From contig RBNJ01000155.1 in NCBI GenBank assembly GCA_003990765.1, forward strand, positions 1-38,793: a stretch of 38,793 nt of DNA, written 5' to 3'. Below the pieces are notes generated by a model. It made no database searches. It was not told the origin of the DNA and worked only from the letters and a program-made list of their open reading frames with translations. Positions 1 to 27,607 of this stretch are shown here, one piece after another (the stretch's first letter is position 1; each line of letters opens with the position of its first letter). The translations under genes and the position numbers were made by a program. The DNA is from Jimgerdemannia flammicorona. Its lineage: Eukaryota.

Positions 1-3000
1 AAAAAAAAAAAAGATACTGGTTATATGTATTTAAAGAGAGAAGACAGATGAGTTTGGAAGAGTATTTGGTATAGTGAGAAAAGTTGTTAGAAGATATTAT
101 ATCTAGCTAGTGAGTGGGGTGGGGCTCTTAGAGAAATCATCACCACTGTCTAGTAAAGAGGATTTGTGAGTAGAGTAAAGAGAGAGTAGTGATGATTAAT
201 AGTTTAATAGTCTTTAATAATTATAAAGAGATGGAGAGTGGTCTCTTGAGAGATATTAGTTAGGAGTAGGATTATTATATTATATTAAGAGTTAGAAGAG
301 TTTAGTAATAAATGATGAAGTCCAAGTAACTATGAAAAAAAAAAAAAAATAGAGTAAGAAATATATATATGTATATTTTAAAAAGATTTGAAAAGTTGAT
401 AAAATAATTTAATTTTTGTAAATTTTTGTAAAACTTATAGATAGTTTTTTTTTATAATAAAATTTAATTATAATATATAATAATATATATATATTATTAT
501 ATAAATTATATATATTTATTAAATTAGAGTAAAATGATTAAAATATTTTTATCTATATTAATATTATATATTTCTCTCAAAAAATATATTTTTTTTACTC
601 TATATATATTATTTTATTTTATTTTTTTATTTTATAGACTTGAAGTTCTATAGATTTTTATTAAAAGGAAATTTAGACTATATAGACCAAAACTCTCTCC
701 CACTATCTCTCAAGTACTACACTCCTAATAAACCTAGATTAGCTATTGTCCAGCAGCTCAACTATAGTAGAGCTTATAGTAGCTCATATCTAATTTTATA
801 TACTACATATACTCTTCCTACTACCAGAGAGTAAATAATTATATATCAATAATTAAAGACATATATCTGAAATCTCAGTATATATAAAAAACTATACTTA
901 AGCCAATTCACATAGTTTCTGCCACTTTAAGTAGAGTAATAGATAAAGAAAAACTATAGAATAGTAGGTAGGATCTAGTTCTCTCTGATGAGATAATTAG
1001 AGGACTTAGAAGGAGATCTCTAATATCTCACTACTCAAGCTTACTGACCTCAATCATATTACTATATCAGCACTTAGTTCTAGTTAAGTGCAGTTAAGAT
1101 ATCTGATCTGGATAGCCTCAGGCCCCTCAACTACTCTCAACAACTGGGGCCTAATACTATATATTACCAAAAGTAGTCAAGAGTGATACTTACTATCTAA
1201 CTATCTCACATCAATCAAAAGGCTCCATCAATATAATATCTGCTCCAGTTCTGATGACTACCCCCAGTCTGGTATCTGACTGGTTTACTGTAATTATCCT
1301 TTCTCTTATCTATGATGGCTATCTCTTCTCTCAACCTAACTCTATCTAAAAAAACAGTTATCTATATCAGTATCATACTTGCTAAGAAGCTCACCAAAGT
1401 ATAGAGAGCTCTACTATAGATATCAAGGACCTGTAGGTAATCTATACTGATACTTAATACTTAATTAACCAATACTCTATATAGTCTATGATATACCAAG
1501 ATAATATCTTATTAATAATAGTAAAAGAAAAAAGTTTCATATTAAAACAAATATACTCCAGATATAGTCAGAGATATTAGAAACTATGAAAAAGTAGAGA
1601 AGATACCAATTTGATACTGATAAAGAGACAATTTAACACTATTGTCTCTCTCTCACTATACCCTTATAGATATAGTAAATCAATCTGAGATAGAAGAGAT
1701 AAAAGTAGAAAAAAGAGAACTTAGAAGCTTGCCTACCAATCTTGTCTAGTATGATAGCAGAGAAAGAGACTGTCTATATTTTTTATCTCTAACTATATTA
1801 TTAGTATATAAATATTTAATATTAAAAAATATTTTCAGATTTTTATTTTTCTAAGATTAAAGAGTAAATTATAAGAGAATTATATATAATTACTATTATT
1901 TTAGAGTTATTTATTTATAATTTAAAATATATTAGAATATTAAATATTATATTAATATTATAAAGTAAAAATAATAATTAAAACTGAATTTTATTTCTTT
2001 TTTCTATTTTTATTTTTATTTTTATTTAATCTACTTTAGTTATTATACAAAATAGTTATATAATATATAATAGTATTAAATAGATCAATTCTTAAAAATA
2101 TTATACTATATATATATATATTTTTTAATCTTTAATATAAATTATAAAAATTATATAGAATCATATTTGCTAATAGTTCCTTAGTTTATTCTTTTTGATT
2201 TTTTTATATTATTTGCTATTTATATATTGGAAAATTGAGCTTCTCTTATAAGTACTATCAGGTCAAGCAATTTTGATCTGATATTTTTATAAAATATAGT
2301 TAACAACTATTTGACTTATAATTTTATCAATAATAAATACACTACTTGTAAATTTATATAATCTAATAACTGATAAATTAGCCTATTTACAGATATTTCT
2401 ATAGGTACAAATTATAGTAAAATTATTCAAAAATAATAACATTGATGATATTACTTATATATATTATCAGATAAGTATATTATATATATATAACTTTAAA
2501 ATACTATTAATTAATCAAAGATTTATTAGATCTATTTGAAATTATTATATCTCTATAATATAACTTAAATATATGATTCTTAGAACTATGTCATTTTTTG
2601 AGTTATATTACTTAATATATAAAAATGTAAGCAATTTAGATTAATAAATATTTATTCTTCTCTGTTATCTATTTTATTATTCATAATAAAGATTATGAGC
2701 TCTGATTAAGTAGCTAAGAAATATCTTACTAAGATTATATATGACTCTATATTAAGATAGTATACTAAGAGATAAATTAAGTAGCTAATATAAGTATATC
2801 AAATATAGCTACAATAGACCCAAGTAATTCAAGTACTATATGTAATAGAAAATACAGTTCTGATTATAAGTATAAATACAGTCAAGAGATCTATCTCAGT
2901 CTTTGGCAATAAGAATTATACTATTTAGATGTTCTATATATATAATCTTCTAAAAGAATAGGCCTAATAGAGTATATGAAACTATAAGTATAGATTTAAA

Positions 3001-4441
3001 ACTATAATACTACTAATAACTATTAAGCATTATGAGAGATTTTATATAATTACTATATATAAGTATTCTCATCAAACTGATTCTACTTATAATCTCAACT
3101 ATTTAATCTATGAATAAAGCTTAAGAAAATAATCTTCAAATATACTAAATATATTGATAATCTAGTAAATTAGGTGAATTTTCTAAGTATATTAGCAGAT
3201 TATATTAGTAATAAAGATAAGATTCTAGCCCTTATAAGAGAACTCTCTAAAGTATATATTATTATTATTATTATATATAATAGTAGGAAGCTTATAGATT
3301 ATACTTATATTATAATCAGTTTTATTAATAAAGAAATATATTAAGAAAATAGTATCAAAGATAATGAGAAGATTCTACAGATCCTATAGATAAGACAAGA
3401 GGTATCAATAAGATCAAAAGTATAAATCTAAGTTTGACAGTAACTATCATTACTGTGGTAAATATAGATATTATGTAAATAATTACTATTATAAAAAGAA
3501 TAAGAAGGAAAATAAAAAAGAAAAGTATAATAAAAGGAAAAAGAGTTGAAATATAAATATTACTAAAGTAGATAATAATAGTGATCTTTTCTTTACTTAA
3601 GCAATATATATAAAAGACCTAGAGAATACATCTTCTACTATTACAAAATTCAACAGAAATACTTTTAAGCTGATGATCAAAAATAATATATATAAGTATT
3701 ACTAATAAATATATCAATATAACCAATAATAATGATGTATAGCTTATAGATTCTAGTATTATATAATATATATATAATAGCATATATAGAGTAGTTCTCT
3801 ATATATGAGCTTCTCAAATATCTAATACTAATTAAACTAGATAATAATAATAATATATATATTTAGAGTAAGAAGAATATCAGTATATATCTTTATAAAA
3901 AAACCATAAAGTCTATCAGTACTCTTGTAGATATACTATATACTCTAGAAATAAGAAAAAACTTCTTCTCAATCAGTAAAATAATACCTCATAATGATAA
4001 AGAAATACTTATATATTTAAAGAAAGCTATAGTCTATGATATATAGAAAAAAAGCTCTTAATAATCTTAAAGTATAGTAATATCTATATGATTAATAATA
4101 TGTATATTAAATAGAAATAGCTTCTGTATTTATATATATAATAACTATACTTAATATATCTAATATAGTATTAATGTTTAGGATATATCAGTAAATTAAG
4201 TCTCAAAAGAATAATTAAGAATAGCTCAGTAAGTAGATTACTAATATATTATTTATCCTGATAACAACTTCTGTAAAAACTATATAATAAATAAGACTTT
4301 AGAGTATCTATTTAAAGAATGGCTAAAGTATATATTCAGGATTCTATACTTTATATATATAGATATATATAGACTGATATATATACTATTATATTCCAGA
4401 AAGAGATATTTCATTATAATTATTAATGATTATATACATAT

Positions 4442-4969
4442 TGTAACATAGCGGATGCTTACTCTTGAAAGTATGTCGGATTTCTGTATCTTGAAAACTT
4501 GACCATTCTGACTCTCACAGAGTCTCTTGAAGTTGTAGGGGAGAGTGGGTGAGTTCGAAGTGTATCTGCCTGCAGGCTTACTAGTTCCTTTGCTATCTCT
4601 TTGCTTTGAACTATTTTGATCTGAGGTTTATTAACTCAAAGATACTGGGTTATTTATATAAGTTTGCTAGCTATGAGATGGCTACTGAGTTATGTGGCTA
4701 AGTTATGAGTCATTTAGACAATGTCTAGAAATTTAGACAATGTCGAAATGCTATACTAAATTGGGGTGTTCAATTTGGATAATGTCTAAGAATTTAGACA
4801 ATGTTGAAATGCTATACTAAATCGAGGTATTCAATTTGGATAATGTTTAAGAATTTAGACAATGTCAAAATCGAAGACTGCTAACTATAAGGTTATACTA
4901 CTTTGGGACTGGGTGCGATCAAGTGTCTATTCCCTATTTTCTTCTTCCAAATTTGGCTGTACTGTCACA
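4442..4969 (-). repeat. 3' LTR of gypsy A (528 bp)
   Basis: TGTAACATAG...GTCACA, near-identical to 10749-11280; preceded on the minus strand by the purine tract CAGGAGGAAG. Confidence 0.95.
4713..4870. repeat. 61-bp tandem repeat within the gypsy A LTR (also ~11020-11180)
   Basis: TTTAGACAATGT recurs at 4732, 4793 and 4854 (period 61), with a partial copy at 4713. Confidence 0.85.
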
Positions 4970-4970
4970 A

Positions 4971-4980
4971 CTTCCTCCTG
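4971..4980 (-). promoter_or_regulatory. Polypurine tract of gypsy A
   Basis: Minus-strand CAGGAGGAAG, 1 nt before the 3' LTR; the same tract occurs in gypsy B. Confidence 0.85.
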
Positions 4981-5006
4981 AATAGATAGTCTTATCCCTG
5001 AGGCAT

Positions 5007-5444
5007 CTATTCAAACTCCCCGGTTTCAACCGTCTGTATGGTCTTATACTGTGCAATTTGCTGCATGACTGTTTTCCAATGATGTCTTCTTACTTTCTCA
5101 AAGTTGGTGGGGGTTACTCCTCTCAGGTGGTCCATCACTAGTTTATCTTCTCGGAATAACTTGTGGATCCTTTTGGCGATAGTAATCTGTGAGTAGGAGA
5201 GTTGGCACTTGGCAATCCAGTCCTCTTTGGTCTTTGCTGGATCCTGATTGAGCATCTGTCCAAGCTTGAAGTACTCTTGGAATTCTGCTTGGTATTGATA
5301 GGCTCTAAAGTGTGAGATCTGAGAGAGATGAGTCTGCACAATACTCTGAATATCCTCATAGTATGGCTCTATGGTCAGAGGCTCGGTGGTGTGCCATTGT
5401 CTTTCAATGGCTCTTTAGGCAGCACTAGTGATCTTGAGTGCCAT
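5007..5444 (-). pseudogene. Gypsy A accessory ORF3, unknown function (~145 codons, one internal TAA)
   Basis: ATG at 5444 lies just after the integrase stops and is in frame with track ORF 5007..5339. Motifs QEYFKLGQML and IAKRIHKLFR match the gypsy B LTR ORF. Confidence 0.75.
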
Positions 5445-5455
5445 CACAGTACTTT

Positions 5456-6650
5456 TATTACTGGCTATGATATTTCTTGAGTCAGTTTCGGTGAATGGTG
5501 GTCGGGATTATTGTGCCTGAGGGTTTTCATAGCCAAAAGGTGGTCCCTTTTATATTTTGCACAAGGTAAGGTCCTTCCCACTTGAGCTCCAGTTTTCGTG
5601 ACTATGAAACTTCTACCATATTCTGATACACTAGGACTTTGTCTCCTATCTTGATAATCTCCAAGGGCTTGTGGATCTTTTCTGTATTCCTCTGTTATAG
5701 TGTCTGCACCTTGGTTATGTAATCCTCAGCCTTCTTCCTGATTTGGTGTAGTCTCCATATTTCCATGTCCACATATTTCCATATAGCATCTCCATTGGAT
5801 GATAGGGTTCCTTGAGAACATTCTTCTCCAAACAGCATTTCTTGAGAGGTAAAGTGGGTGCTTTGTGATCGGATATCCTGGAGAGCAGATAATGCATTAG
5901 CAGATAGTGATCCCAGTTCTTGTAGTTATCACAGATCTTGGCGATAATATTCTTGAGGGTTTTGTTCATCCTTTCTACTTATCTGTTTCCTTGGGGGTGA
6001 TAGGCTGTGGTCTGAATGTACTAGATCTTGTACTTCTTGTAGAGAACCTCAAAGAGCTGGTTCACAAATTCTGTTCCTCTATCTGTAGTTACTTGTGTTG
6101 GGGTCTTGAACTGGCAGATGATTTCCTTGTGGAAGAAATTGGTGATTGACTGTGCATTGGCTTTCTTGAGAGGTCCTGCTTCTATCCACTTCGTAAAAAG
6201 GTCTACAATGACAATGATGTATCAGTTACCAGTCAGGGTCAAGGGTAGAGGGCTGATTACATCCATTGCTATATGGGCAAATGGTACTGGTTCTATGTGT
6301 GCTGATTCTGGTGCTTGATTCCGTTGGTCTTGTTTCTGTTTCTGGCATTTGTTGCATATCTTGACAAATTGTCTGATATCTTCCTCTATCCCTGGCCACC
6401 ATATTGTTCTTCTTGTCTTGTCATATGTATTTGTTCCTCCTAGATGGCCAAGTTTGTGTACTGATTTCATTGCTTGCTCCTTCTTATGTTCTGGTATGAC
6501 CAGTAGTTTTCCTTTCTTCAGTGTTTCTCCATCAGTTTTGAATTGTTTCTATGTCCTGTTGATAATCATTTGTGTCCATTCTTCCAGATGTTGGGGCATC
6601 TTTCGCTGTCCTAGATATGTGATAATTCTGTAGTAGAGCTCCTTATTTAT
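5456..6650 (-). pseudogene. Gypsy A integrase (HHCC, DDE core, GPF-type C-terminus, no chromodomain)
   Basis: HKLGHLGG...CNKCQ, MDVISPLP, VDLFTKW, NKTLKNI and IHRN.LKKY; several stops and frameshifts. Confidence 0.9.
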
Positions 6651-9600
6651 GATTGATTTGTTGGTTGGAGGCAGTTTGAGGTGTCCATGAGAGAGCATCT
6701 GCATTGGAATTCCATCTTCCAGGGCAGTGTATGATGGTCACATCATAGGCTTGTAATTTCATTATCCATCTGACATAGATTCCCTTAGGTTGTCCAGTTG
6801 TCAGTAGCCAGGTGAGAGCTGAGTGGTCTGTCTGGATAGTGAAGTGTCTTCTGGCCAAATAGTAGTGGAACTTTTCCACAGCCCAGATGACTGCAAGGCA
6901 TTCCAACTTGTAGGACTCGTATTCCTTTTCAGCCCCTCGGGTTCCATGGCTAAGATATGTAATGACATACTCTTTTTTGTCTTCTTTTTGAGCTAGGACT
7001 GCTCCTAGTCCTTGTATGCTTGCATCTGTCTGAAGGATAAATTCTTGGGTCCAATTGGGTCATCTGAGGATGGGTGCCTGAGTTAGTCTGATCTTGAGTT
7101 TGTCAAATGCTTTTTGTTGTCTGCCAGTCTACTGGAACTTGGTATCCTTCTTGTTGAGTTCGTAGATTGGACCTACGATGTTGGAGAATCCTCTAATGAA
7201 TCTGCAATAGTAGGAGGCAAGTCCCATGAAGGCTTGGGCTTCTGTAACAGTAGTGGGCCTTGGGTATGCTGCTACTGCTTGTATTTTGAGGGGGTCCATG
7301 TATGTTCCATCTCGATTGATAATATGACCAAGATAGGAGATCTCAATTTCTGCAAACTTGCACTTCTTGGGTTTGATATAAAGGCCATGTTGTCTTAGTT
7401 TCTCCATTATCTGCTGTATATGCTGCAGATATTCCTCAGGTGTCTTGCTATAGATGATTACATTATTGACATAGACCATCATCCATCTTCCCATATCATA
7501 GTGGAAGATTTTGTTCATCATTTGCTGAAAGCTTGCTGGTGTATTGCACATTCTGAATGGCATTCGTAGGTAGATATAGGTTCCGTCTGAGGTGATGAAG
7601 GCTGACTTTTCACTTGCTATCTCTGTGAGTCCGATTTGGTGAAATCCTGAGTATAAGTCCAAGGTGCTGTAGTACTCTGCTTCGTCTCCCAGTGTTATAA
7701 GGATGTCACTGATGAGCAGCAGTGGTTGGCGATCCTTCTTGGTAACTGCATTGAGCTTTCTGTAGTCGACACAGAGCCTTGGGGCAAATTCTCCAGGTTT
7801 GCTTTCTTTTTTCGGGGCTAGTACAACTGATGAAGACCAGGGGCTGCTGGCTTCTTTGATGATGCCAGCTTCTTCCATCTGCTTGATTTCTTCTCTAAGT
7901 CATTCTCGGTAGGCTGGCGGGACAGGTCTTGCCTTCTGATAAATGGTTCAGTGTCTCTGGTGTCTACCTCATGATAGTAGTATGGGGTCTTTTCCTTGAT
8001 ATCCTTGAAATCTGTGGCAAGGACATCCTCAAATTTGTAGAGTATTTTCTTGAGTTCCTCCTTAAGTGGGAATTCATCTTCAATGGTATAACTGTGCTTG
8101 CTTGTGTTTTCCTCCTTCTTATGCTCAAGTTCAGTGATCTTGGTGCTGGCGAATACTCCTCTTCCTATGGATCCAAATTCTTTCTTTCCTCTTTTTGTTT
8201 CCTCCAGATTCATGACTTCTATGATCCTTGGCTGTATGATTGGGAAGATCAACATCTGTGCCAATCAGTCCTTCTTCTTGACTGGAAATGGAATTGTAGG
8301 ATTGTGGTTCCTAGCAATGAGTAGAATTTCTTCAGTATAGTCTGAATCAATGACTCCTTCTTCAATTGTGATTTCACTTCTAGCCAGACTGCTTCTTGTC
8401 TTGAGAATCCTGACATGATCCCTTGGGATGGTCATCTTTAGTCCAGTTGCAAGTAGTGTGGTTATCTGGGGTTCAAGTACAGTTTCTTCTACTGTAGCGA
8501 TGTCCATTCTGGCTGCATTTTCTGACTTATATTCTGGTAAGACTACATCAGGGTGGATCTTTCGAATCTTGATCTTGATTTCTTCTTCATCATCACTGTC
8601 CTTCAGGAGGACTGGTGGTTCGTTGTCTTCCTTCTTCTCTTCTTCTCTGATCTGTTTTTCGAGAGCTTTCTGCCATCTTTCCTGGTAGATCTTCCTGGTT
8701 TCAATGGTGTACTGGTAGCAATTATTGACATGCTCCATACAGTACATCTTGATTCCATGAGGACAGACTCCTTGTGGAGCATAGCCTTCTGTGATCTTCT
8801 TGCACCATTCTTCTTCACTCATCCATCCAACTTTTTTCTTCTTTGGAATAGTCACCATATAAGCTTCCTTTTGCTCACTCTCTTCTTCCTCCATATCAGG
8901 CAGGACTCCTTTGTTGACATTGATGGGAATTCGTATCTTCTGTCCCCAGTAGGTGATCTGTATCTTCTAAGTATTGAGATCGATTACCGCCTTGGCCTTG
9001 TGAAGCCATTGATTACTGATGAGGATGTCATAGTTGGTGGCATTGGTTACAATTATATCTACTGGGATTATTGCTCCTCCGATCTTGATGGGAACATCTC
9101 GGATCTTTCTCAGAGGTGTGGCTCTTGTGCCATCAGTTGTGACAAATACTAGCTTAGTTGCTTCTTCCACATCCCAACCTAGGCAGTCTACTGCCTTCTT
9201 ACTGAGGAGACATCCTCCTACTCCCATGTCAATGATGGCTTCAAAGGTTCTATCTTCAATTTGGCATGTTGTATAAGCAGAGGTTTTGTGATTGTCCTCA
9301 CTTTCTTCTCCTGAGTCCTCTTGAACATTATTGGCCTCAGTTATCTTCTATCCTTGTTCCTTGGTTGTTTCAGCAAGTCCAAACCTCATTTGCTGTCTGA
9401 ATGTTGGGATTTCTGCGAGCTGACCAAAGGTTGCATTGACCTTTTGTTGACTGAGATCCTTGAAGATATCATACTTGAAGGTCTTGGTCTTGCAAAGCTT
9501 CTTTTCTTTTTCTCCTTTACTGGCTAGAGTGGTTCCTCAGATGATATCTTGAACTGCTTACTCCAGCTCGATATCTTGGTCCATCTCTTTGGCTTGGCTT

Positions 9601-10634
9601 TCTGTAGTGATTTCCATCTACTTTTCCACTGGGTTCTTCTTGGGTCTTCCTGGTGGTCTCTTGTAGAGTTCTTTGTGAGCATCCTTCTTGGTGGTCTGAG
9701 CAGAATAGGCCTCCCATTCCTCTTCATTGGATTCTCCAATTTCTTCAAAGGTGATTATATTGGCCTGCTCCTTGTTTCATATAGCATTGCTTGGTTGAGT
9801 CTTGCATTTGGTTTCACTCATACATTCATAGGAGTAGTGGCCTTCTTCTCTGCAGCTGTAGCAGGTACCTTTCTTCTTGTCTGAGGTGGCGGCAAACTTC
9901 TGAACAGGGTGGCAATCTCTTCCTCAGATTTCCTTTACCACATCTCCCAGGTGAGCAGTTATTTCAGCAAACCTTTTGGCAAGTTCCTCCATAGGGTCAC
10001 TGTTCTTTTGCTGCTCTGTAGCTTTTGGCTGAGGTGTGTTTTGATTGATCATTATGGTGGAGATCACACTGGTTGCCTTGGGTGCCTCGATTCTGACTCC
10101 TGTAACTCTCTCCATTGTATGATCTTATGGGTGTCTGGCTATCCAGTATTGCTGAGCATAGGTGACCTTCTGTGGCAGATCCAGAATCACTGGTGATGAG
10201 CAGATGGCCATGGCTATTTCTGGATGGACTCCTTTTATGAAGGTTGCTTCAGCTACTTGATCTTGGATAGCAGTAGCATAATCTGCAAGGATTATCTGAT
10301 ATCGGATTCTGATATAGCATGTGTTTGGATCCTCGCTCATTCCTTGGCATATTGTGTTGAGCTGATCCTTCAGGGCTTGCTTGATCTCGTCTGTGTAATA
10401 TGTATTTCAGAGCCAGGTCTTCTGTGCTGTCAGTATGGCATTGGCATCATTTCCTGCATGGGTTGCAGCTGTGAATGCTGCTCTGGCAGGGCCTCGTAGA
10501 CTGAAGGGCATGAGGGCTACTTGCTGTACTGCTGTTAGAGTCCTTACAGCAGCATACTGCTCGAAATCGTCAATGAAGGTGATGATTGATTCATCTGAGG
10601 TATATCCATGGAATACTGGTGGTCTCATATCCAT
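6643..10634 (-). pseudogene. Gypsy A gag-protease-dUTPase-RT-RNase H polyprotein, disrupted
   Basis: Gag MRPPVFHG; knuckle CYSCREEGHYSYEC (~9820-9870); protease IIDMGVGG; dUTPase RSSLA, GVIDSDY and RGKKEFGSIG; RT LCVDYRKLN and LDLYSGFHQI; RH ECLAVIWAV, TDHSAL and NADALS. Confidence 0.92.
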
Positions 10635-10727
10635 CTTATCTGAGTATTGGGGCTCGGTTTGTATAGTTGTTCAGGTAGTGGTGGTTGTTCGTTGTTCAGC
10701 TTGAAAGTGAGGGATTCGTCTTGAATC

Positions 10728-10745
10728 ACCAGCCAATGGGTACCA
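10728..10745 (-). promoter_or_regulatory. Primer-binding site of gypsy A
   Basis: TGGTACCCATTGGCTGGT starts 3 nt after the 5' LTR; cognate tRNA not identified. Confidence 0.75.
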
Positions 10746-10748
10746 AGT

Positions 10749-11280
10749 TGTAACATAGTGGACACTTACTCTTAAAAGTACATTGGATTTCTGTATCTTG
10801 GAAACTTGACTGTTCTGACTCTTGCAGAGTCTCTTGAAGTTGTAGGGGAGGGTGGGTGAGTTCGAAGTGTATCTGCCCACAGGCTTACTAGTTCCTTTGC
10901 TACATATCTCTTTGCTTTGAACTATTTCAATCTGAGGTTTATTTACTCGAAGATACTGGGATATTTATACAAGTTTGCTAGCTATGAGATGGCTACTGAG
11001 TTACATGGCTAAGTCATGAGTCATTTAGACAATGTCTAGAAATTTAGACAATGTCGAAATGCTATACTAAATCGGGGTGTTCGATTTGGATAATGTCTAA
11101 GAATTTAGACAATGTCGAAATACTATACTAAATTGGGGTGTTCAATTTGGATAATGTCTAAGAATTTAGACAATGTTGAAATTGAAGACTGCTAACTATA
11201 AGGTTATACTACTTTGGGACTGGGTGTGATCAAGTGTCTATTCTCTATTTCCTTCTTCCAAATTTGGCTGTACCGTCACA
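10749..11280 (-). repeat. 5' LTR of gypsy A (532 bp)
   Basis: Direct repeat of 4442-4969, differing mostly by transitions; adjacent to the PBS. Confidence 0.95.
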
Positions 11281-13185
11281 ATATATAAGACCTTTACATA
11301 TATACTTCTTATTAGTAAATAATAAAGCTCTGAAAAAAATTAAAAAATTCAATATAATTATAGAAAATAAAATAAAATATAGAATATAACTATATAATTA
11401 TAAATATATCAATAGTATATTTAACAATTTCTGAAGAAAAATAGTATATATCATCAGATAACTATACTCTATATATCTCAGTAGAATAGTATGGCTGAGT
11501 AATTTAACTAAATAATTATTGAAATAATATAGGTAATGATTTATATAATTAAATTGTCATATTTCTATTAGATCAAAGCTATCAATATAGTGATATATAT
11601 ATATATAATTAGTATAATTTTCAAGCCTTAAATAAGGAGTCTTATAATAATGATAAAAATTCTAGAAATACTGATTATATTTCTGAGGAGTTGTAGAGTA
11701 AAAAAAAAAATGTCTAATATATTTATTTATATATATTTAGATATAATATATATATTCTTAACAAAAGTAATATCATTTAATATAAGTTTGAGCTAAAGCT
11801 AATAAGTACATATTCTTTGAATATTCTGGTAAAGTATATGGGCTCTGAAATATTGAAAAATAGTATATAGTTATTTTATATAATATATAGTTCAAGGAAG
11901 AGATCAAGAAATCTTGCATAGATATATCTGTTAAAACCTCTACAATTATAGTTCAGTCAAAGCAACCATCATTCTCTCTTTAGTTGTTAAGAAAAATATT
12001 TTATAAATATAGCTATTTGAAAATTATCTACTAAATGAACTATAGTTACCTGAGCCAAAAAACAGAGATCAGAGATAAGAATGATGAACTCTTCAGTAAT
12101 AAAGAATTCATAAAGAAAAAGGACAAACAAAAGCAAAAGTACTCTAATATTTACTGAGAAATAGTTCAGATTTAGAAAGTTATTAAGATTAAAAAGTCTT
12201 AAAAGATAATATAAAAACTATATAAGCTAGATCAAAATATATAAATATATATATATTATAATATCTTCTGATGAGCCAAGTATCTACAATGATACTATAA
12301 CTGGTCCTAATAGAGAAAGATAAAAGTAAGCTATGGATAAAGAGTATAATTTACTCATAAAAAATAATATATAAGATTTTGTATCTCTTTTATCAAACCA
12401 CTAAGTAATCAGATCACATTGGGTCTATAAATCAAGTATAAGATTAATAGAAACATAAAATAATATAAAGCTCATTTCATTGCTAAGAGATATTTACAAA
12501 GTTATAATATAAATTATATATGATGAAACTTTCTCTTTAGTATTCAAGCTTACTTTACTAAGAATATTCCTTACAATCAGTATACTATATAATCTAAAAA
12601 TCCACCAAATAGATATTAAGATAGCCTTCTTAAATAGTGATATTGATATTAATTTATATATCTATCAACTTAAAGGATATGAACTATATAATAATCAGAA
12701 TAATCTTGTATGTAAATTATACAAAGAGTTATATAAAATTAGTAAGTAGTATATCTGTAGAACTGAAAAATTAATAATTATCTTCTTGATAATAGATTTC
12801 TATATTATAAAGTAGATAATTATATATATATTCAATACTATAATAATAAAGTAGCTTTTATAGATATATAGATAGATAATATAATTATTATTATATAAAG
12901 ATAAGCTCAATAAAGTTAAAGAAGCCTTATACTAAGAGTTTAAGATAATATATATAAGTGATATATTCTTATTTTTAGAGATATCTATTATATATAATAA
13001 AAATAAATATACTATATATCTCTTATAAATAATATATATCTAAATACTTCTCAAATATTTTAATATAAGTAAATATAAGTCTATTAGTATGTATATATAT
13101 ATCAATAAAGTTGAAAAAAAACCTGAGACTGATACTATACCAGAGTCTGCTAAGAATATCATCAATATTCCTTATTAGTAAGTAG

Positions 13186-14723
13186 TGTAATGGTGACCCC
13201 AGAATGATGACATCAGTATAGGAGATAGTCTTTCCTTATAAGCCACCAGATCAGAGCATAAGAAGATCATACAGTATATGAAATGAGCAATAATGGCCAA
13301 CTGTGAGTCATTGTGACCACAGTACAAGCATCCTGAAGAATATAAAAGAAGGATCAAGGAACTATAGTAGCAGCAACCAACAAGAACCACCAATCCCAAA
13401 ATAGCTCAAAGACTTACTACAAATGAAATGCCTGCTGCCTGCTAAACCTCAAGGTCAAGGAATCACCAAGGTATCTCAGTTGAGGAAAGGATGTTCCAAG
13501 ACATCAGAAGAGCCATGAGGACCCACTCAATAAGGACTCTGAGTATCAACCTGGATACTACAGATCCCTATCACTTTATCCTCTACTATTGTGAAATGGA
13601 AACAAGAATCACCATTACCACTGAATGCCTCCAAATGTGGCAGGAGTACAAAATAGGAAACCTCCTCTGCCAGGAGTTCCCACAGGCTAGCACTCAAGAG
13701 CTATAAGATGCCACTCCCATGGATATATATGAAATGAGGATAGCTAAGAAGATCTATCAGATCTTCAGACATGCATCATGGTTGATCCCCAACTTAGAGT
13801 ATGTTAGAGTCTCAGACTTCAGAGACCTGTCATCCCACCATATCAATGCACTAGAAGCCAGGGTAGCTACAGAAGCCCAGTCCACTATCACCCTCAATAG
13901 TGAAGAAGTAGAAGACTTCTGGCATCCCATCCTTCAGGACAACCCAGACCAATTCCTGCAAGGATTGATCTCAGTATTCCAAGACCCAAGCATCCAGGTT
14001 AGACCTCCCTAAGACCCCACATTTGTTTCTTATTTTGTGAAAAAGAACCTTATAAACTGGAGAGCTCCAGATCCCCTTATTCCCACTGCTGCTGAATGTG
14101 ATGATATCATTGGTGATGACGTCATCCTGTATGACATCAACATATGTGAAGCATGTGAATCATGTGATGATGAATTCACAGATCTCATCTCCTTCAGTGA
14201 TGATAATGATGATGAAGCCCCCATGATCCTGAACTTTCTACTCTAAGTTCTTTGTTACACTAAATAATGTCAGCATCAGTATTCTCATATAACACTGGAT
14301 AATGCCAGCACCGGCATTCTGAGGTGATACAAAATTGTTCCAATACTGGTATTCTGATATGACACTGAATTATATCAGTATCCTGAACCTGTACAACTAT
14401 TAGTGCCGACCCTGGAACTCAGTAGTTTTAGTTATTGGAATTTATATTTAGCTTTATATCTTAGCAACTGTTGAATTATATTTTGTATAGATACCTCTCT
14501 TATTTCCTCTGAAATAAAGTCAGTCAAGTTCAGTGCAATACATAATCCCTTGCAAGCAATCTAAGAGATAACAAGATAGTTAAAGATAAGAAGTTTGAGA
14601 ACTATAAGACCTTGGAAAGGTACTCCAATAAGAACTTGCTTATAACAAACTTGAGTTAGTCTAAGAGATATATCTTGAAGAGAATCTGATATATTTGAAG
14701 GACTCAGTGACTACTATGTGACA
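13186..14723 (+). repeat. 5' LTR of gypsy B (1538 bp), containing a 5'-truncated copy of ORF3
   Basis: Direct repeat of 20418-21958; track ORFs 13491..13706, 13719..14012 and 14037..14246 are all in one frame. Confidence 0.95.
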
Positions 14724-14843: not shown

Positions 14844-17800
14844 ATGAAAATGCACCCCCCCACATTTTATGGATATATATACTACCGAAGAGTCAATCCT
14901 GACCTTCATTGAAGACTTTGAACAATTTGCCACCATACAAGCCCTTGGTGTAGATACTCAATTGGCCCTTCTACCAGTCAGCCTCAGAGGACCTGCCAGA
15001 GACAAGTTCAATGCAGCCACCATTGCTGATGCTGGTGCAGCCAAACTTGCCAACATGGAGGTCTTTCTCAGAACAATATATTATACCAAAGAGATCAAGC
15101 AAGCTCTCAAGGATCAACTCAATACCATCTGCCAGGGACTTAGTGAAGATTCCAACTCATTCTATAATCGAATCTGCCACCAGATTGTCTTGGCTGGCTA
15201 TGATGACCACCTCAAGGAACAAATAGCAGATTCAACCTTCCTCAAAGGAGTTCACCCTGAAATTGCCCTAGCAATCCAGTCTACCCCAGCTGTACTGACC
15301 CTTGATCAGAAAGTGGTCTTTATACAGAGATATTAGACTATCAGACATCCTGCTGAACACTTAATGGAGAAAATAACTGACATCAAGATGGAGCCATCAA
15401 AGCCAACTAGTATCTTACCTGCTACAGTTGTAAACAGACAACCAACCTCACCTACCCCCAAGACAACCAAAGCTGACCCAGTGGAGGAACTCGCCAAGCA
15501 GTTCACTAAGATGACTACACACCTTGGAGATGTTGTTAGAGAAGTCTGAAGTGCCAACAGGAGACCAGTGCAGAGATTTGCAGCTGCTACAGAAGAATGC
15601 AATATCACATGCTTCAGATATAGAGAAGAAGGCCACTATACAAAGAATTGCATGACTGAAACAAGACGCAAAGCCCAACTAAGTAATACTAGCAGAACCA
15701 GAGAACAAACCAATGCAGTAGTCATCGAGGAGATTGGTGACACTGATGATGAAGAATACTATAAGGAGCTTGAATTCTATCCTGCTACTGAAGGTACCAG
15801 AACCTGGTCCAAGCTCTATGACAAGAAGAGCAATAGCAAGCCAGTTGGAAGACCAAAAAAGACCCCAGCTGTCACTATTCAAAGCAAGATCCAACTCAAG
15901 GAGATTGATCAAGACATAGAGTTAGATGAAGCTATCTGCCAAATTATTGAAGGCACTACTCTAGTCTCAGGAGAAAGTGAAAGCAAGAAGGAACAGAAGC
16001 TGCGCAAGACCAAGATCCACCAGTATGATATCTACAAGGACCTCAAGGAACAGAAGGTCAATGCTACTTTTGGACAACTAGCTGAAGTCCCTGTCTTCAG
16101 ACAGCAGTTGAGAGTAGGACTTGCAACTACTGTCAAGAATCAAGAGTACAAGATTGTAGAAGCTCACAATGTACAGGAAGAATCTGAGAACTCAGGTGAA
16201 GAATCTGAAGACCAGCACAAGACATCAGCCTATACCCTATGTCAGATCGAAGACTGTATCTTTGATGTCATCATTGATACTGGTGCTGGGGGATGCCTCA
16301 TGAGCAAGAAGACAATTGACTGCCTAGGTTGGGATATTGAAGAGTCCACCAAGATGGTCTATGTCACAGCAGATGGTATACAAGCTACCCCCCTTGGCAA
16401 AATCCGAGAAGTCCCCATCAAGATAGGAGGAGCTACCATTCCAGTAAACATGATTGTTACAAGCACCACCAACTATGACATCCTTATTGGCAACCAATGG
16501 CTTTATAAGGCCAAGGCCATCATTGACCTCAATGCCCAGAAGATGCAGATCAACTATAAAGGAAGAAAGGTACAGGTCTCTATCAATGTCCACAAAGGAG
16601 TTCTACCAGACATGGAGGAAGGAGATGAAGAAGACACAGAGGTCTTCATGCACTCAGTGAACAAGAACAAGAACAAGACACCCAAGCTCACAGATGAGCA
16701 GTGGTATAACAAGATCATCAATGGCTATGCCTCTCAAGGAAGATGCCTCCATGGTACTAGGATGTACTGCTCTGAATACCTGAATGACTGCTGGTCCTGT
16801 ATCAGTGAAGTCAGGAAAATCCACCAACAGAAACATGAGTAAGAAGCCACTGAAGCAAAAAGGAAAGCCGAAGAAGATGACCAGCCCCCAGAGCTCCAAG
16901 CTGACAGTGATGATGAGTAGGAATAAGAATCAGACATCACCCTCAAGGTCAAGAAGTTTCACCCTGAAGCCAAGATCCCAGAATATAAGACTAAAGGAGC
17001 CATAGGAATGGACCTTGCCAGTATTCAAGATGCTACCCTTGAACCACAGACCACCACCCTACTTGGCACTGGAATTGGAGTCAAGCTGCCAGAGAACCAT
17101 GCTGGAATTATCAAGACAAGGAGCAGTCTGGCCAAAAGTGAAATCTCAGTTGAAGGAGGAGTAATTGACCCAGATTACACTGGCAAGATCTTCCTCATAG
17201 TCAGAAATCACAACCACACCACCCCCTTCGAAGTCAAGAAGCATGACAGGATTGGCCAGATGCTGATCTATGAAATTAAGAAACTCAAGATCATTGAAGC
17301 CATTGAACTCATCAAGACCAAGAGAGGAGAACAAGGCTTTGAATCTACTGGAAGAGGAGCCTATGCCACCACCAAGATTACCAAACTTGAACACAAGAAA
17401 GAAAAGGACCAGAATAAGCACACATATACCATTGGAGAAACCTTTCCCCTGGAGGAACAACTTCTCAAGATTCTGCACCAGAATGAAGGAGTACTTGCTA
17501 TAGACTTCAGGAATATCCACAATCAAGAACCCAAGTACTACCATGAAGTTGACACTGGAGTTACCAAGCCCATCTATCAGAAAGCCAGACCCATACCACC
17601 TGCCTACAGAGAATGGCTGTGAGCAGAACTCAAGGAAATGGAAGAAGCCAGAATCATCAAGCAAGCTATCAGCCCCTGGGTCTCACCCATTGTCCTTGCT
17701 CTAAAGAAAGAAAGCAAACCTGGAGAGTTCATGCCAAGACTCTATATTGATTACAGGAAGCTCAATGCTATCACCAAGAAGGATAGACAGCTCTTGCCAA

Positions 17801-20108: not shown

Positions 20109-21481
20109 ATGTCCTGTGACCAGCAGGCTATCTGTCTGGACCATTCTCTAAGGGATACAGCACTGATAACTACTCATCTATGAGACTTTCAAAGTCAGAG
20201 AAGTTTGAACCATCAACTGATTGGTCAAGATCAGAATCAGGCCCTTGCTCTATATGAAGGGAGTGATCCTTCACCATCATACCAAAATACAAAGGGAAGA
20301 TGCCAGCCCATAAATACCACTTTTCGACCCCTTGCCAGAGGTTATGGGATCAGCAAATTTTTCAGGACTAGACCAATGAATAAGGATGCTCAGGAAGATC
20401 CTTATTCAGGAGGAAGATGTAACAGTGACCCCAGAATGATAACATCAGCACAGGAGACAGCCTTTCCTTACAAGCCATCAGATCAGAGTATAACAAGATC
20501 ATACAGCATATGTATGAAATGAGTAATGATGACCAACTGTGAGTCATTGTGACCACAGTACAAGCATCCTGAAGAATATAAAAGAAGGATCAAGAAACTG
20601 CAGTAGTAGTAACCAACAAGAACCACTAATTCCAAAATAGCTCAAAGACTTACTACAAACGAAATGCCTGCTGCCCACCAAACCTCAAGGTCAAGGAATC
20701 ACCAAGGTATCTCAGTTGAGAAAGGATGTTCTAAGACATCAGAAGAGCCATGAGGACCTGCTCAACAAGGACTTCGAGTGTTAACCTGGGTACTGCAGAT
20801 CTCTATCACTTTATCCTCTACCGCTGTAAAATGGAAACAAGGATCACTATTGCCACTGAATGTCTCCAAATGTGGCAGGAGTATGAAATAGGAAACCTCC
20901 TCTACTGGGAGTTCCCACAGGCCAGCACTTAAGAGCTACAAGATGCCACTCCTATAAATATATGTGAAACAAGGACAGCTAAGAAGATCTATCAGATCTT
21001 CAGGCATGCACCATGATCGATTCTCAACTTGGAGTATGTTAGAGTCTCAGACTTCAGAGATCTGTTATCCTGCCATATCAATGCACTAGAAGCTAGGGTG
21101 GCTACAGAAGCCCAGTCCACTATCACCCTCAACAATGAAGAAGTAGAAAACTTCTGGCATCCCATCCTTCAGAACAACCCAGACCAATTCCTGCAAGGAT
21201 TGATCTCAGTATTCCAAGACTCAAGCATCCAGGTTAGACCTCCCCAAGACCCCACATTTGTTCCTTATTTTGTGAAAGAGAACCTCATAGACTGGAGAGC
21301 TCCAGATCTCCTTATTCCCACTGCCGCTGAACGTGATGATATCATCGGTGATGATGTCTTCTCATGTGATATCGACATATACAAAGCACATGAATTGTGT
21401 GATGACAAATTCACAGATCTTATCTCCTTCAGTGATGATGATGATGATGAAGCCTCTATGATCCTGAACTTTCTGCTCTAA
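20109..21481 (+). pseudogene. Gypsy B accessory ORF3 spanning the PPT and U3 of the 3' LTR (~457 codons reconstructed)
   Basis: ATG 4 nt after the integrase stop. Track ORF 20205..20522 crosses the PPT/LTR junction in this frame. It continues into 20750..20932 and 21029..21481 after a 1-nt deletion that the 5' LTR lacks. Internal stops fit C->T or G->A changes. Confidence 0.7.
20407..20417 (+). promoter_or_regulatory. Polypurine tract of gypsy B
   Basis: CAGGAGGAAGA directly before TGTAAC of the 3' LTR. Confidence 0.85.
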
Positions 21482-21958
21482 GTTCTATATTATACTGAAT
21501 AATGCCAGCACTGGTATTCTCATGTAATACTGGATAATGCTAGCACCAGCATTCTGAGGTGATGCGAAATTGTTCCAACACTAGTATTCTGATGTTATAC
21601 TGAATTATACCAGTATCCTGAACCTGTATAACCATCAGTGCCGACCCTGGAACTCAGTAGTTTTAGTTATTGAAATTTATATTTAGCTTTATATCTTAGC
21701 AACTATTGAATTATATTTTGTATAAATACCCCTCTTATTTCCTCTGAAATAAAGTCAGTCAAGTTCAGTACAATATACAATCCCTTGCAAGCAATCTAAG
21801 AGATAACAAGACAGTTAAAGATAAGAAGTTTGAGGACTATAAGATCTTGGGAAGGCACTCCAATAAGAACTTACTTATAACAAACTTGAGTTAGTCTAAG
21901 AGATATACCTTGAAGAGAATCTGGCATATTTGAAGGACTTAGCAACCACTATATGACA
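20418..21958 (+). repeat. 3' LTR of gypsy B (1541 bp)
   Basis: TGTAACAGTG...ATGACA; ~35-bp degenerate tandem repeats (~21490-21620), TATAAATA (~21721) and AATAAA (~21748) lie downstream of the ORF3 stop. Confidence 0.95.
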
Positions 21959-22599
21959 GTAGTTAGATCACTTATATATCTTATATTAAGAATGAGATCT
22001 TATATATTATATTATATAATTTAAATGAGATAGTATAATACTCCTTCTACTATATATAAAAATTTACATTGATTAGTAATTGAGAGGATTTTCAGATATA
22101 TTAAAAGTATAGTATATTATAAACTTACTCTCAGCAGATTGAGTAAGAGTAATAGTAAGAATAGTATATTTCTATCTGATATATATAATGTCAATTAAGC
22201 TGAATACTTAAATGATCACTACTTTATAATCAGATATCTCTTTTATATTGATAAAAATAACAATAAAGTTATTTTATAGCAAATATACAAGTATTGTTTA
22301 TAGAAGTTATTTAGCTATACTAGTTATTAAAAGTACTCAGTTTTAATCAGAAATAGTATTATATACTTATTCTTTAAGATAACAGATCAATGATTACTAT
22401 GACAAAAAACTCAGTATATTATTCAAAAATAAAATATATCAATATATAATATTATTATATAAGAGAGTATATAGAGAATGAGATCATATGTTTAAAATAC
22501 ATTCTAGTAGAGTATATGATTGTAGATTTGCTTATTAAAGTCCTTTTAAGACTAAAATTTAAGCAATATACTTAAGAAATAAGTTTTATAGAGAACTAT

Positions 22600-23794
22600 T
22601 ATAATAATATCTCTGAAACCAATAATATCAGAATTCAGAAGACCGCTTTGACTTTGCAAGTCACTAGTTATAAGTTATAACTCAACTATAACTCATCTTG
22701 ATCAGAAGATAATTTTATCTGAACTCATAATAACTTATAATGAGCCCAATAATATACTACTCTAAATCAGATAACTCTACCCACTAAACCAAAAAAGAAG
22801 ACTCTCAAGATATAAAAGAAGTATCAAGAGAAGAAGTACAAAACATCAAACTATGAATAAGAGACTTACTACTAAAAAAAATTACTACTATTTACCAAAT
22901 AGTAAGGTTAAGAAGCCACTCTAGTCTATTAGTTCAAGAATGAATATTCTCTGATATTTGTAGAGCAATAAAGTTATATATAAAAAGAACTTCTAGTCTG
23001 AACCTCTATATAAAGAACTCCTATTACTATACTCTTAGCTACTAAGAAATAGAGATAAGAATTATCACTACTGCTGAGTATCTTTGGATATAATAAGAAT
23101 ATAAGATAGAATATCATCTCTACTAAGAATTCATATAAGCCAGCTCTTAAGAAATTACAGATACCATATATATGAATAAGTATGAACAGAAATTAACCAA
23201 AAGAGTCTACCAGATCTTTAGGTATATATTCTGGATCATTCTCAACCTGGAATATATCAAAGTTTCTGATATTCAAAATGACAAGTTATCATATAGACCA
23301 TCTTAAAGAAATAATTGCAGAAGAGACCCAATCTACTATTATAGTCAAGAGTAATAAAGTTCATGACCTTTAGAATCCCATCTTAGAACTAGTTTGTCTA
23401 TGGTCTGATTTTACTATTTCAAGGCCTTCTCTTAAAAGTCTGCTACTCTCAGAATTCCACAGATATTTCCTACTTTATAGATAACAATACTATTAACTAA
23501 AGTCCTCAAGAGTAGAATAACTATATACCCTTTGGTGATATTATTAACAATGATATCACTCCTCTAAACAACTTGGAGAATGATAGCAACATACTTATCC
23601 TTTTAGTAATTATGAGTTACAACTAATTATCTAGTCTTATATATGTATAGTCTAAAAACTATATAAATATTTCCTGATCTGTAATAAATAAATCTCAGTC
23701 AATTGGGTTTACCAACTTAAGTTCTGAAATACAAGGAAGTTGAGTGTAAGAACTTTGAGAAAAGACTCCAAGAGTTGAAGAATTACTCTTATCA
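22600..23794 (+). mobile_element. Older solo LTR of a gypsy-B-related family carrying a decayed ORF3 domain
   Basis: Start TATAATAATATC resembles TGTAATGGTGAC after G->A/C->T changes; ends in CA; flanked by CTAT at 22596-22599 and 23795-23798. Encodes KRVYQIFRYIFWIILNLEYIKVSD (~23200-23270). Confidence 0.75.
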
Positions 23795-23829
23795 CTATCT
23801 TGAAACTCAGATATATATCAAGAACTGCT

Positions 23830-24110
23830 ATAAATCTTGGAAATTGAATATAAGACTACAGACTATATGAAATTCAAAATATAAGTCAGTTAAGACCATT
23901 ATGGAAATCAGATACAAGACCCTAGAACTCAAAAGACAAGTCAAGACTGCACATACAAGATACAAGTCAGTTAGTAAAGCTGCTATAGAAAATCATTATA
24001 AAACTCAAGATACAAGTTAGTTAGTTAAAAAAATTACTACAGAAATTAGAAACAAGATCAGGAAATACCACTACAGTTAGTTAAAACTACCAGAAAACTC
24101 AGTCTAGGAT
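23830..24110 (+). repeat. Degenerate short repeats (AACTCAAGATACAAGTCAGTTAG-like), possibly the copia-1 3' UTR
   Basis: Recurring CAAGATACAAGT(C/T)AGTTAG-like units at ~23875, 23955 and 24003. Confidence 0.45.
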
Positions 24111-24922: not shown

Positions 24923-25508
24923 GGTAAGTAGGATGGGGACAGTATGGTCGAATATTACACAACGTGTATGTGGTTGCATTACGGGGATGGCGCCCAAAAA
25001 ATTTGATTCCCACAACCGTGCGCCAGGGGGTCAAAACTGGTATTGATAAGCTGGCGTCTTCCATATACATTTCAGTGTCGTTGGTAACGGGGCACTCTAA
25101 AGCACGCCGACCAGCGCCTAAGGGCGGGCACGGCTTTGTGGTCGGTCCGGGCGCTTAACAAATTCGGACCGGGAAAAGCCTGGCCTTCGGGCCTCCTTCT
25201 TTCGCTTCCTGAGATATATATGTTTTTCGCAGTTTTGCGGTAGCGTATATACAACATAGTGAGTTCTTTTTAATAAAGTTAAAAGGAGCCAAGTACCCAG
25301 GGTCACGTGTGTCGTTGTATGCCACGTTCTCGAGCTCTATACCCTTGCACCTTACATCGTCTGCACGGAATGGAAGCCCTTTGAAACCCCCTCCTACCTT
25401 CCTTCCACCAGAACCACACAACGCCACCGCCACATTTGACACCTCCACCCCCCCCCATGGAACCATAGCAGGACCGCCCCGCCGACGAATCCGATTTGAA
25501 ACGCCACT

Positions 25509-26231
25509 ATGCCGACTGCCACCGGCTTGACTATCATTATAGCGAACCTGCGAGACATTGTCAAGGACCTGCAGAGGAGGATCGTGACGATGGAGGCCCT
25601 GGCGGACGGTCATGGGATGGACGCGCGACTGTTGTGGACCCTGGAGGTGAGCTCGATTGCATTGGTTAGAGGGAAAGGTTTATGTGTTTGAGTGGGCATA
25701 CGTTGCAAAATCTCCCTCTCATTTCGTATCAGTTATATTGCACTTGCTCACTCATGATCGTTACCGCCATACTTTTCCCTCCTTCCCAGGAATACAACCT
25801 GAACACCAACGCCCAATTTACCGCACCATCAAACGTACCATTTTCGACCTCTGGAACACGCCGCGAGCTCTCACTTCCCACCTGGAAGTGTGCCACGCTA
25901 ATCAACATGAGGGCAGCAGCGATGCCGACTTTCGGTCCACTTCTTTTTCGACATGCTTAGCTTCGAAGACACTATTCCGACATCAGCAACTCGATTATTG
26001 ACCGGATCTCCGCTGTCAGCTAGACAGGTATCCAAATTTCTCTCGCTATCCTCTTCCAGTCGCTCTGCAGCGCCCGGGGGTCTCGATCGCGAGCTTTCGG
26101 GACACATAATCCCCCGATTCCAGGGCCACATTGGAGGCCGGGTCGCCGAAGACTTGTATATCGACCTGTTTACCCCATCGGGGACGCACTTCCTGACCGA
26201 TACCATGCCGGAGGGTGATGCCTTTGCATAG
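25509..26231 (+). CDS. Hypothetical spliced gene or pseudogene (possible exons 25509-25646, 25790-25834, 25917-26231; ~165 aa)
   Basis: Strong donor GAG|GTGAGC at 25647 and pyrimidine-rich acceptor CCTTCCCAG at 25789. The second intron has a weak donor (GTACCA) but a GCTAAT branch site and CAG acceptor. Exon phases join in frame; CpG is retained. Confidence 0.35.
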
Positions 26232-26922
26232 GAAGGGAGTAAGGATGTTCCTGGGGGGGGGGGGGGGGATGTAAAGCAAATGGCAAGGTTAGGGGTCCAG
26301 GGCAGGGGTGGAGGATGAGCGGAGGGAGGATGAAATGGGCGTGATTTGGGAAAAGAAGAGAAGACGAGACGGTGTGGCAAGGGCGCACAGAGATGGGTAA
26401 CTAGGACGGAGGTCGTTGGAAAGCCGAACGGAGGCGGCGGGTATCGGGGTTAGGAGGTGTTTAGGCATTCGAAATCGGGCTATGACGTGGTTAATGGTGA
26501 GTATTATTTACGGGTTTATTGATACTATGCCGAGAGATTGGAAGGAAATATTCAAGAGTGCAGCGGGGTTGGCGTTGTCCATTTATTCCTTGAGTCTGAT
26601 GGGTTGATTTCTGAAATGTCATCATTTCGCTCACATTTTCTCTCATCTTTTGATCCCACCCCTCTCCAAATACTATCACAATCGCAAAGAATACAAGGAC
26701 GTCGGGGATTGATTGTGAGGACTATTTTTTTTTTTCTCCTTTTTTTTTTTTTTGTTGTATTTGTGGTCCTTTCACACTGGCGATTAACCTCCTGCCACTC
26801 CATTCGATTCAAAACTTCCTTAACCAACCCATCGCCCCTCCTCAACTATCCACCCCAGGGCGTAACCTCCTCCTGCGTGGGAGACACCCAACGTTCTTCA
26901 ACACGCTAGCTCATAGCGCTAC

Positions 26923-27348: not shown

Positions 27349-27493
27349 TAAAAATTACAATATGCACCAATCTCTAAGTATTCTGTTTCAATTTTTAATT
27401 CAAATTTGAGTAATATATAAAATTCAAATAGATATAAGAGAATTAGAAAGTCTTAATAGTAAAATATGTATAATAGTAAAATATCTTTTATGT

Positions 27494-27497
<4 letters not shown>

Positions 27498-27532
<35 letters not shown>

Positions 27533-27576
27533 ATAAAATAAAAAAAAAAAAAAAAAAAAAATATTTTTTTTTTATT

Positions 27577-27600: not shown

Positions 27601-27607
<7 letters not shown>

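Follow-up and report, generated by a model that had tools for sequence, protein, structure and literature searches.

Architecture of the two elements and of the surrounding DNA

The window, i.e., the whole stretch of 38,793 nucleotides that was analyzed, carries two complete gypsy-type insertions arranged head to head, element A on the minus strand and element B on the plus strand, as established by self-comparison and direct reading (Table 1). Paired LTRs with TG..CA ends, a TSD, a PBS and a PPT are found in both elements, and the Pfam domains appear in the order RVP_2, RVT_1, RT_RNaseH and Integrase_H2C2, with a dUTPase domain between PR and RT, so that structure and domain order are those of Metaviridae (Ty3/gypsy). 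The PBS ACTTGGTACCCATTG is common to A and B, as is the PPT AGGAGGAAG. The two internal regions share 68% DNA identity (A 5467-10789 corresponding to B 20041-14683), and tblastx comparison gave 54-68% identity in pol and about 50-60% in gag. No Pfam match to a chromodomain, on which an assignment to the chromoviruses would depend, was obtained at 5465-5725 or 5715-5978, i.e., where integrase ends in the decayed A copy. Neither tRNA nor Rfam features were detected in the window.

The LTRs measure about 530 bp in A and about 1540 bp in B, as had been stated originally (0.53 vs 1.54 kb), and the LTR-pair identity is 92% in A and 89.6% in B. Both elements are riddled with stops, many of which fall in the internal region of A. 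The differences within the LTR pairs are nearly all transitions (149 transitions vs 4 transversions in B, mostly CpA>TpA; 37 vs 2 in A, mostly CpG), a pattern that looks like RIP-like or deamination hypermutation. Mutation of this type means that LTR divergence provides no clean estimate of age.

Table 1. Coordinates of the main features of elements A and B in the window.
Feature	Coordinates	Strand	Remarks
A, 5' LTR	10749..11280	-	Self-comparison
A, 3' LTR	4442..4969	-	TG..CA ends; self-comparison
A, TATATAAATA box in 3' LTR	4660-4651		
A, AATAAA in 3' LTR	4632-4627		
A, 61-bp repeat x2.6 in 3' LTR	4712-4871		
A, internal region	4970..10748	-	gag, protease, dUTPase, RT, RNase H, integrase, ORF3
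A, TSD	11284-11281 and 4441-4438		4 bp, ATAT
A, PBS ACTTGGTACCCATTG	begins at 10748		After 5' LTR
A, PPT CAGGAGGAAG	4971..4980	-	Followed by T, then LTR start TGTGACAG
A, dUTPase domain (PF00692)	8265-8966	-	E 1.5e-11
A, candidate promoter TATAAAAG	5547..5554	-	86 nt upstream of ORF3 start, inside integrase codons
A, ORF3	5007..5468	-	153 codons + stop; P0001 alignment
B, 5' LTR	13186..14723	+	TG..CA ends; self-comparison
B, 3' LTR	20418..21958	+	Self-comparison
B, TSD	13182-13185 and 21959-21962		GTAG
B, PPT AGGAGGAAGA	20408-20417	+	
B, dUTPase domain (PF00692)	16927-17622	+	E 1.4e-27
B, TATAAAAG in 5' LTR	13341-13348	+	87 nt upstream of ORF ATG
B-type ORF3 in 5' LTR (U3)	13428..14246	+	P0010 aligns 13428..14243, P0009 13491..14243
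B, TATAAAAG in 3' LTR	20577-20584	+	87 nt upstream of ORF
B-type ORF3 in 3' LTR	20664..21481	+	1-nt frameshift near 20720; stops 20732, 20930, 21014
B, TATAAATA box in 3' LTR	21721-21728	+	Downstream of ORF stop
B, AATAAA in 3' LTR	21748-21753	+	Downstream of ORF stop
Third B-type copy, TATAAAAG	22811-22818	+	Decayed copy; 70 nt upstream
Third B-type copy, ORF region	22862..23608	+	Heavily mutated; about 60% DNA identity

Several other features were noted in the window. AT-rich blocks extend over 1-5000, 11000-13000, 22000-24000 and 27000-32000, with stretches of 11-30% GC between elements, and collinear dispersed repeats (2845-4203 and 31049-32709; 68-75% over about 1.1 kb, in three pieces) flank the element cluster. 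An island of 52% GC at 25000-27100 carries ORFs of 116-183 aa on both strands, three of which were scanned and gave no Pfam match. Inverted repeats of about 380 bp with 74% identity (27780-28133 and 29487-29868), lying 1.4 kb apart in DNA of 11-25% GC, may represent the ends of a decayed DNA transposon, and a 525-bp perfect-type palindrome, 89.6% self-complementary and made of short GGATTCGAATCC-like units, occupies 30470-30994. At the end of the window, a GC-rich block (33000-38793, plus strand; 54-59% GC, G-over-C skew +0.37 to +0.51) contains ORFs 633 and 390 aa long, to which Pfam offers no match, an 850-bp direct repeat (33144-33994 vs 34736-35586, 74%) and, cut off by the end of the window, an RT domain at 37958-38791. 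This block is probably another retroelement.

ORF3 of element A, its homologue in element B and the encoded protein

In element A, an additional ORF (ORF3) was found on the minus strand after integrase, its stop lying 36 nt before the LTR and just upstream of the PPT. An ORF between integrase and PPT, spanning 5444..5007, had been proposed in the original prediction; there is indeed an ORF in that span, but it contains an in-frame TAA at 5417-5415, where CAA (Gln) has been lost, and the true start lies upstream at 5468. The frame that is open from stop to stop in the A copy is thus reduced to 5414..5007 (135 aa). The intact 153-aa database protein P0001 (76-77% identical) aligns with all 153 of its residues to 5468..5010, at 75.8% identity, and this full-length alignment sets the gene span at 5468..5007. 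The start codon of the A copy has also decayed, from ATG to ATA (5468-5466); with the ancestral ATG in place, about 20 nt at the start of ORF3 would be shared with the last pol codons.

When 5.8 billion proteins were searched by word index with the A ORF, nine candidates came back, eight of which are relatives, and after a joint profile search the A-type database proteins numbered ten, one of them full length, with pairwise identities of 63-96%. The ORF, located between pol and the 3' LTR in sense orientation, is therefore kept among A-family copies, as anticipated, with the qualification that database proteins are intact by ascertainment. The copies of ORF3 in the window are dead in both A and B, and intact versions exist elsewhere. 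These findings show that A ORF3 is a real retrotransposon accessory gene, limited to this lineage.

Element B carries a related ORF in both of its LTRs. The copies are broken by TAA or TGA stops; in the 5' LTR, the frame is interrupted by TAA near 13443 and again at 13704 and 14010. When the stops were read as X, six database proteins were recovered among 94 candidates, including intact ones of 247 and 271 aa, and the joint profile search raised the number of B-type proteins to seven. Within the LTR, 243 nt precede the ORF, and about 240 nt separate its stop from the TATAAATA box; because it ends upstream of both the LTR TATAAATA box and AATAAA, it is placed in U3. Its distance from the pol stop is about 610 nt, beyond the PPT. 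Between the two LTR copies, 21 of 253 codons show synonymous differences and 48 non-synonymous ones, as expected for decay after insertion. The third, heavily mutated B-type ORF region lies about 0.9 kb past the B 3' LTR; its N-terminal part is matched by the family HMM with an iE of 1.7e-27, and its flanks no longer match B.

The relationship between the two ORFs was addressed at several levels. In a tblastn search of the window, the A ORF matched the B 5' LTR at 13485-13868 (29/129 identical, E 1e-05), and this was its sole non-self match below E 2. The three pairs of motifs on which a kinship of the two ORFs had been proposed by eye all fall within this one collinear alignment. Comparison of the two family alignments with hhalign gave a probability of 85.9% and an E-value of 5.2e-06 over 110 columns; with a value of 38.6, the real score exceeded the mean of 200 column shuffles by about 9.7 sd (mean 13.4, sd 2.6, max 20.8), and the reversed profile scored 14.9. 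The proposed protein relation is in this way borne out by profile-profile comparison with shuffled controls. Moreover, in a six-frame search of the window each family HMM found the ORF of the other family as its best non-self match (iE 0.0023 and 0.0021). MAFFT aligned A end to end and collinearly with the N-terminal approximately 140 residues of B, which is longer than A by two insertions (10 and 12 residues) and by about 110 residues at the C-terminus; the amino acid identity is 22-25% (about 23%). On the other side, single-sequence comparison was weak: BLASTP of P0001 against P0009 gave an E-value of no better than 8e-04, and phmmer with the A protein missed the B family, as described below. 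We conclude that, at the level of sequence comparison, A ORF3 is shown to be homologous to the N-terminal approximately 140 aa of the B protein of 247-271 aa.

The family is narrow. The joint profile search identified 17 proteins among 8000 scored candidates, ten of A type, seven of B type and no others. The B family was not reached by phmmer with the A protein alone among 1.84 billion representatives; three of the five phmmer matches of the A ORF belong to its own family, and the other two, P0015 and P0017, are tandem-repeat proteins and were judged spurious. A scan of prokaryotic genomes for relatives yielded 50 pattern matches, none of which was confirmed.

No known family could be assigned to the protein. 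Neither the window fragments nor the 17 family members gave a Pfam match above cut-off. The two matches of a PDB profile search were to a carboxypeptidase and Atg5 (E 0.49 and 1.1) and carry no meaning; when the A model was compared with PDB and BFVD by Foldseek, nothing matched at E<=0.001, and in the ESM Atlas only unnamed clusters were hit. No likeness to Sag, Nef or Tas emerged from the PDB profile search or from Foldseek against PDB and BFVD. Structure prediction for both proteins had been recommended originally, and the AlphaFold2 models obtained are all-helical in both families, but poor (mean pLDDT 52.6 and 43.7). HTH_Tnp_Mu_2 was matched in 2 of the 17 members, with a best E-value of 0.031 that does not reach the cut-off, and HTH proteins appeared among the Foldseek matches of the low-confidence model at E>=0.88 only; as the fold models are poor, a helix-turn-helix reading is only a lead. 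In the five proteins scanned there is no membrane segment (maximum Kyte-Doolittle 19-residue mean 0.19-0.74), and since the proteins (153-271 aa) are hydrophilic and devoid of such a segment, they are not env-like. As far as modeling goes, the A ORF3 product is shown to be a soluble, all-helical protein of about 153 aa without known family. A proteins are near neutral in charge. The pI of B proteins is 4.1-4.6; their N-terminus is rich in Arg, and their tail, which ends ..DLISF..D/E-rich..LNFLL, is strongly acidic, with a net charge of -9 over the last 20-residue window.

Conservation is uneven along the protein, and invariant columns are grouped in a block at P0009 121-194. When P0001 was modeled as a homodimer, the score reached 0.46, compared with 0.00 for the best of three controls, with at least 56% of contacts agreeing between runs and a partner pLDDT of at least 63. 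In calibration, 21 of 30 solved homodimers and none of 23 solved monomers attained this mark (17/29 and 0/30, respectively, in eukaryotes), counts that are small and come from a test calibrated mainly on microbes. The predicted symmetric interface comprises residues 40-76 and 84-94; it falls on the block that is most conserved in the A family and covers FQEYFKLGQIL, with the QEY.(L/I)G..L motif common to A and B. The modeling thus supports binding of the ORF3 protein to itself as a homodimer.

The gene, the PPT/LTR boundary and the candidate transcript

The PPT together with the first LTR bases is strongly conserved between the elements (22/24 identical, A 4984..4961 vs B 20403..20426), the PPT and LTR start reading TATTCAGGAGGAAGT and TGTGACAG in A, and TATTCAGGAGGAAGA and TGTAACAG in B. 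The U5 end and the PBS are also conserved, and the U3 interiors of A and B show no DNA similarity, in agreement with the original description of the LTRs as dissimilar. Given the conserved PPT/LTR start, ORF3 lies on opposite sides of the same boundary, internal in A and in U3 in B; the gene and the PPT boundary have swapped places between A and B. It had been suggested that the PPT/U3 boundary shifted relative to the gene. The different sides are as suggested, but the PPT and the LTR start are conserved as a unit, which means that either the gene moved or a short module of PPT and terminus moved, and that no simple slide took place. Of the original interpretation, in which selection on an ancestral third gene was proposed, a part is thus supported: the homology of the two proteins, the retention of the ORF in both families, and its placement on different sides of the PPT. 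As genomic RNA includes the 3' U3, the RNA of A and B alike is ordered gag, pol, ORF3, R, and ORF3 is the 3'-most gene on the genomic RNA of both A and B. The B gene being within U3, a copy of it is present in every B LTR.

Two candidate traces of the rearrangement were rejected. A derivation of the B U3 leader from the 3' end of integrase, hinted at by MAFFT, gave local scores of 19-22, which are within those of shuffles (mean 18.7-18.8, max 27-30). A PPT relic upstream of the B 5' LTR, as would be left by a tandem array, is explained in part by the TSD GTAG, and no B-like DNA is present upstream.

Upstream of ORF3, the sequence TATAAAAG may serve as a promoter. It has eight matches in the 38.8-kb window on both strands, and four of them precede an ORF3 start by 70-87 nt in sense orientation (one in A and three in B-type copies), a coincidence that was noticed after the fact, with the three B-type matches shared by descent. 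B integrase has no TATAAAAG at the site homologous to that of A. Being AT-rich, TATAAAAG is immune to the C>T decay seen here. An mRNA running from TATAAAAG to the LTR poly(A) signal would have a length of about 0.9 kb for A and 1.15 kb for B. Contigs of relatives are short (nine of the ten A-type contigs at most 962 nt, six of the seven B-type contigs at most 1046 nt), which is compatible with such mRNAs and equally with fragmented assemblies.

The U3 of A (4712-4871 and 11023-11182) contains 2.6 tandem 61-bp units, each with a 6-4-6 palindrome, GTCTAAGAATTTAGAC. Allowing at most one mismatch, GTCTAAGAATTTAGAC has six matches, all in the two A LTRs, against 0.16 expected. Judging from sequence, these palindromes are possible protein-binding sites. 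No repeated palindromes of this kind were found in the B LTR.

The explanation that we consider the best overall, and to which we give somewhat better than even chances, is that ORF3 is a real, lineage-restricted gene, whose product would be a dimeric regulatory protein made from its own 3' mRNA. The steps that concern the mRNA, the dimer and its role are put forward with low confidence. The mRNA might be a short 3'-terminal transcript that starts downstream of TATAAAAG and ends at the LTR poly(A) signal; its product could form a symmetric homodimer through the most conserved helices (residues 40-76), and the dimer might serve the element as an accessory factor with a regulatory or nucleic-acid-binding role. 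In the B form, an acidic, hydrophobic C-terminal tail would be added, perhaps resembling an activation domain.

A rather unlikely alternative is that ORF3 is homologous in the two elements but was not inherited in place, the 3' module having been acquired or replaced in one or both lineages by template-switching recombination with another retroelement, whose diverged version of the gene came to lie on a different side of the PPT. The amino acid identity of about 23% in ORF3 is to be compared with 50-68% in gag and pol by tblastx and 68% at the DNA level, and a gene so much more diverged than pol allows for recombinational replacement besides strict vertical descent; however, accessory genes and U3 commonly evolve much faster than pol. 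The DNA homology of A and B ends exactly at the pol stop and ORF3 start (A 5467 = B 20041), and no relic of ORF3 was found in the 357-nt pol-PPT spacer of B or in the A LTR, nor any relic PPT after the B ORF, all of which suit a replacement. Yet the collinearity of the two proteins extends over the full length of A, and only two types, with no third donor lineage, came out of the joint profile search.

Less probable still, and in our view unlikely, is that A ORF3 is translated from genomic RNA in coupling with the pol terminus, either by termination-reinitiation or by frameshifting in the overlap of about 20 nt, with TATAAAAG being coincidental. The overlap of the ATG, as restored by comparison with P0001, with the last pol codons would suit such coupling, and TATAAAAG is AT-rich and in A consists of Lys/Tyr codons. 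On the other hand, the equal spacing of TATAAAAG (86/87 nt) in non-homologous contexts would be left unexplained, and as the B ORF lies about 610 nt past the pol stop and beyond the PPT, coupling cannot be the mechanism shared by the two elements.

The lineage-restricted gene with its own 3' mRNA can also be pictured in a stronger form, which we hold to be quite improbable as a whole, namely as a self-contained, retrovirus-like cassette with its own TATA promoter, ORF and LTR poly(A) signal. Since that of B would lie inside the LTR, each LTR, solo LTRs included, might express a dimeric factor that works in trans on the family. Repeated palindromes such as GTCTAAGAATTTAGAC in the U3 of A would then be a possible target in trans, and the A/B pair would document the passage of a gene from one side of the PPT boundary to the other.

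Very improbable, finally, is that the similarity arose by chance or that the ORFs are open frames without function in non-coding DNA that decays fast: the identity of 22-25%, the stops in both window copies, the lack of a family match and the intactness of the database proteins by ascertainment only would agree with this, but the distance of the real hhalign score from the shuffles, the reciprocal best profile matches, the full-length intact proteins at 57-96% pairwise identity within each family, the unevenness of conservation with its invariant block, and the non-coding U3 of A and B, which bear no similarity at all, disfavor it.

Relation to known systems

A published account describes additional ORFs in sense orientation, located between pol and the 3' LTR (aORF-3S), as well known in plant elements; it also mentions antisense additional ORFs in the fungal element Boty and states that the functions of aORFs are mostly unknown (PMC7264820). 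In a figure on fungal gypsy elements, the legend likewise includes an 'add. ORF' whose function is unknown (PMC2864245). The arrangement in A fits this known class of additional ORFs in LTR retrotransposons: ORF3 follows integrase and precedes the PPT, is in sense orientation, is kept across copies and has no similarity to known proteins. It differs from env-like aORFs in having no membrane segment and only 153 aa, and from aORF-3S in that the gene of the sister element B sits inside the LTR. In the open-access literature, no report of an ORF inside the LTR of an LTR retrotransposon was found.

As regards the host elements, dUTPase domains occur in fungal gypsy elements according to another account, with PosPlaTy3-5 carrying dUTPase between protease and RT (PMC2864245). 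Fungal Ty3/gypsy elements with dUTPase have been reported from Postia placenta, Phanerochaete chrysosporium and Tuber melanosporum. Elements A and B share with them the dUTPase between protease and RT; no chromodomain was found where integrase ends in the decayed A copy. Together with the RIP-like decay and JGI labels, this literature gives a lead towards a fungal host.

Extra genes are common in LTR retrotransposons, and a role is known for almost none. The A/B pair offers a natural comparison, the same orphan gene having been kept on either side of a conserved PPT/LTR boundary, so that a gene has been retained in a surrounding LTR architecture that is plastic.

Among retroviruses, accessory genes in or overlapping U3 include MMTV sag and HIV nef, and the foamy-virus gene tas/bel1 has an internal promoter. 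By analogy, the arrangement in B resembles that of MMTV sag and HIV nef, with the 3'-most gene in U3 and duplicated in both LTRs, and may be regarded as a retrotransposon counterpart to the retroviral genes embedded in U3. The candidate TATAAAAG promoter upstream of ORF3 recalls the internal promoter of foamy-virus tas, and the acidic C-terminal tail of the B protein could be likened to those of transactivators. In contrast to sag, nef and tas, to which no sequence or fold similarity was found, ORF3 is hosted by a gypsy-type retrotransposon without env. If a dimeric regulator with its own promoter proved true, retrovirus-style trans-regulation would have arisen in a simple, probably fungal retroelement, and the LTRs themselves would be protein-coding units.
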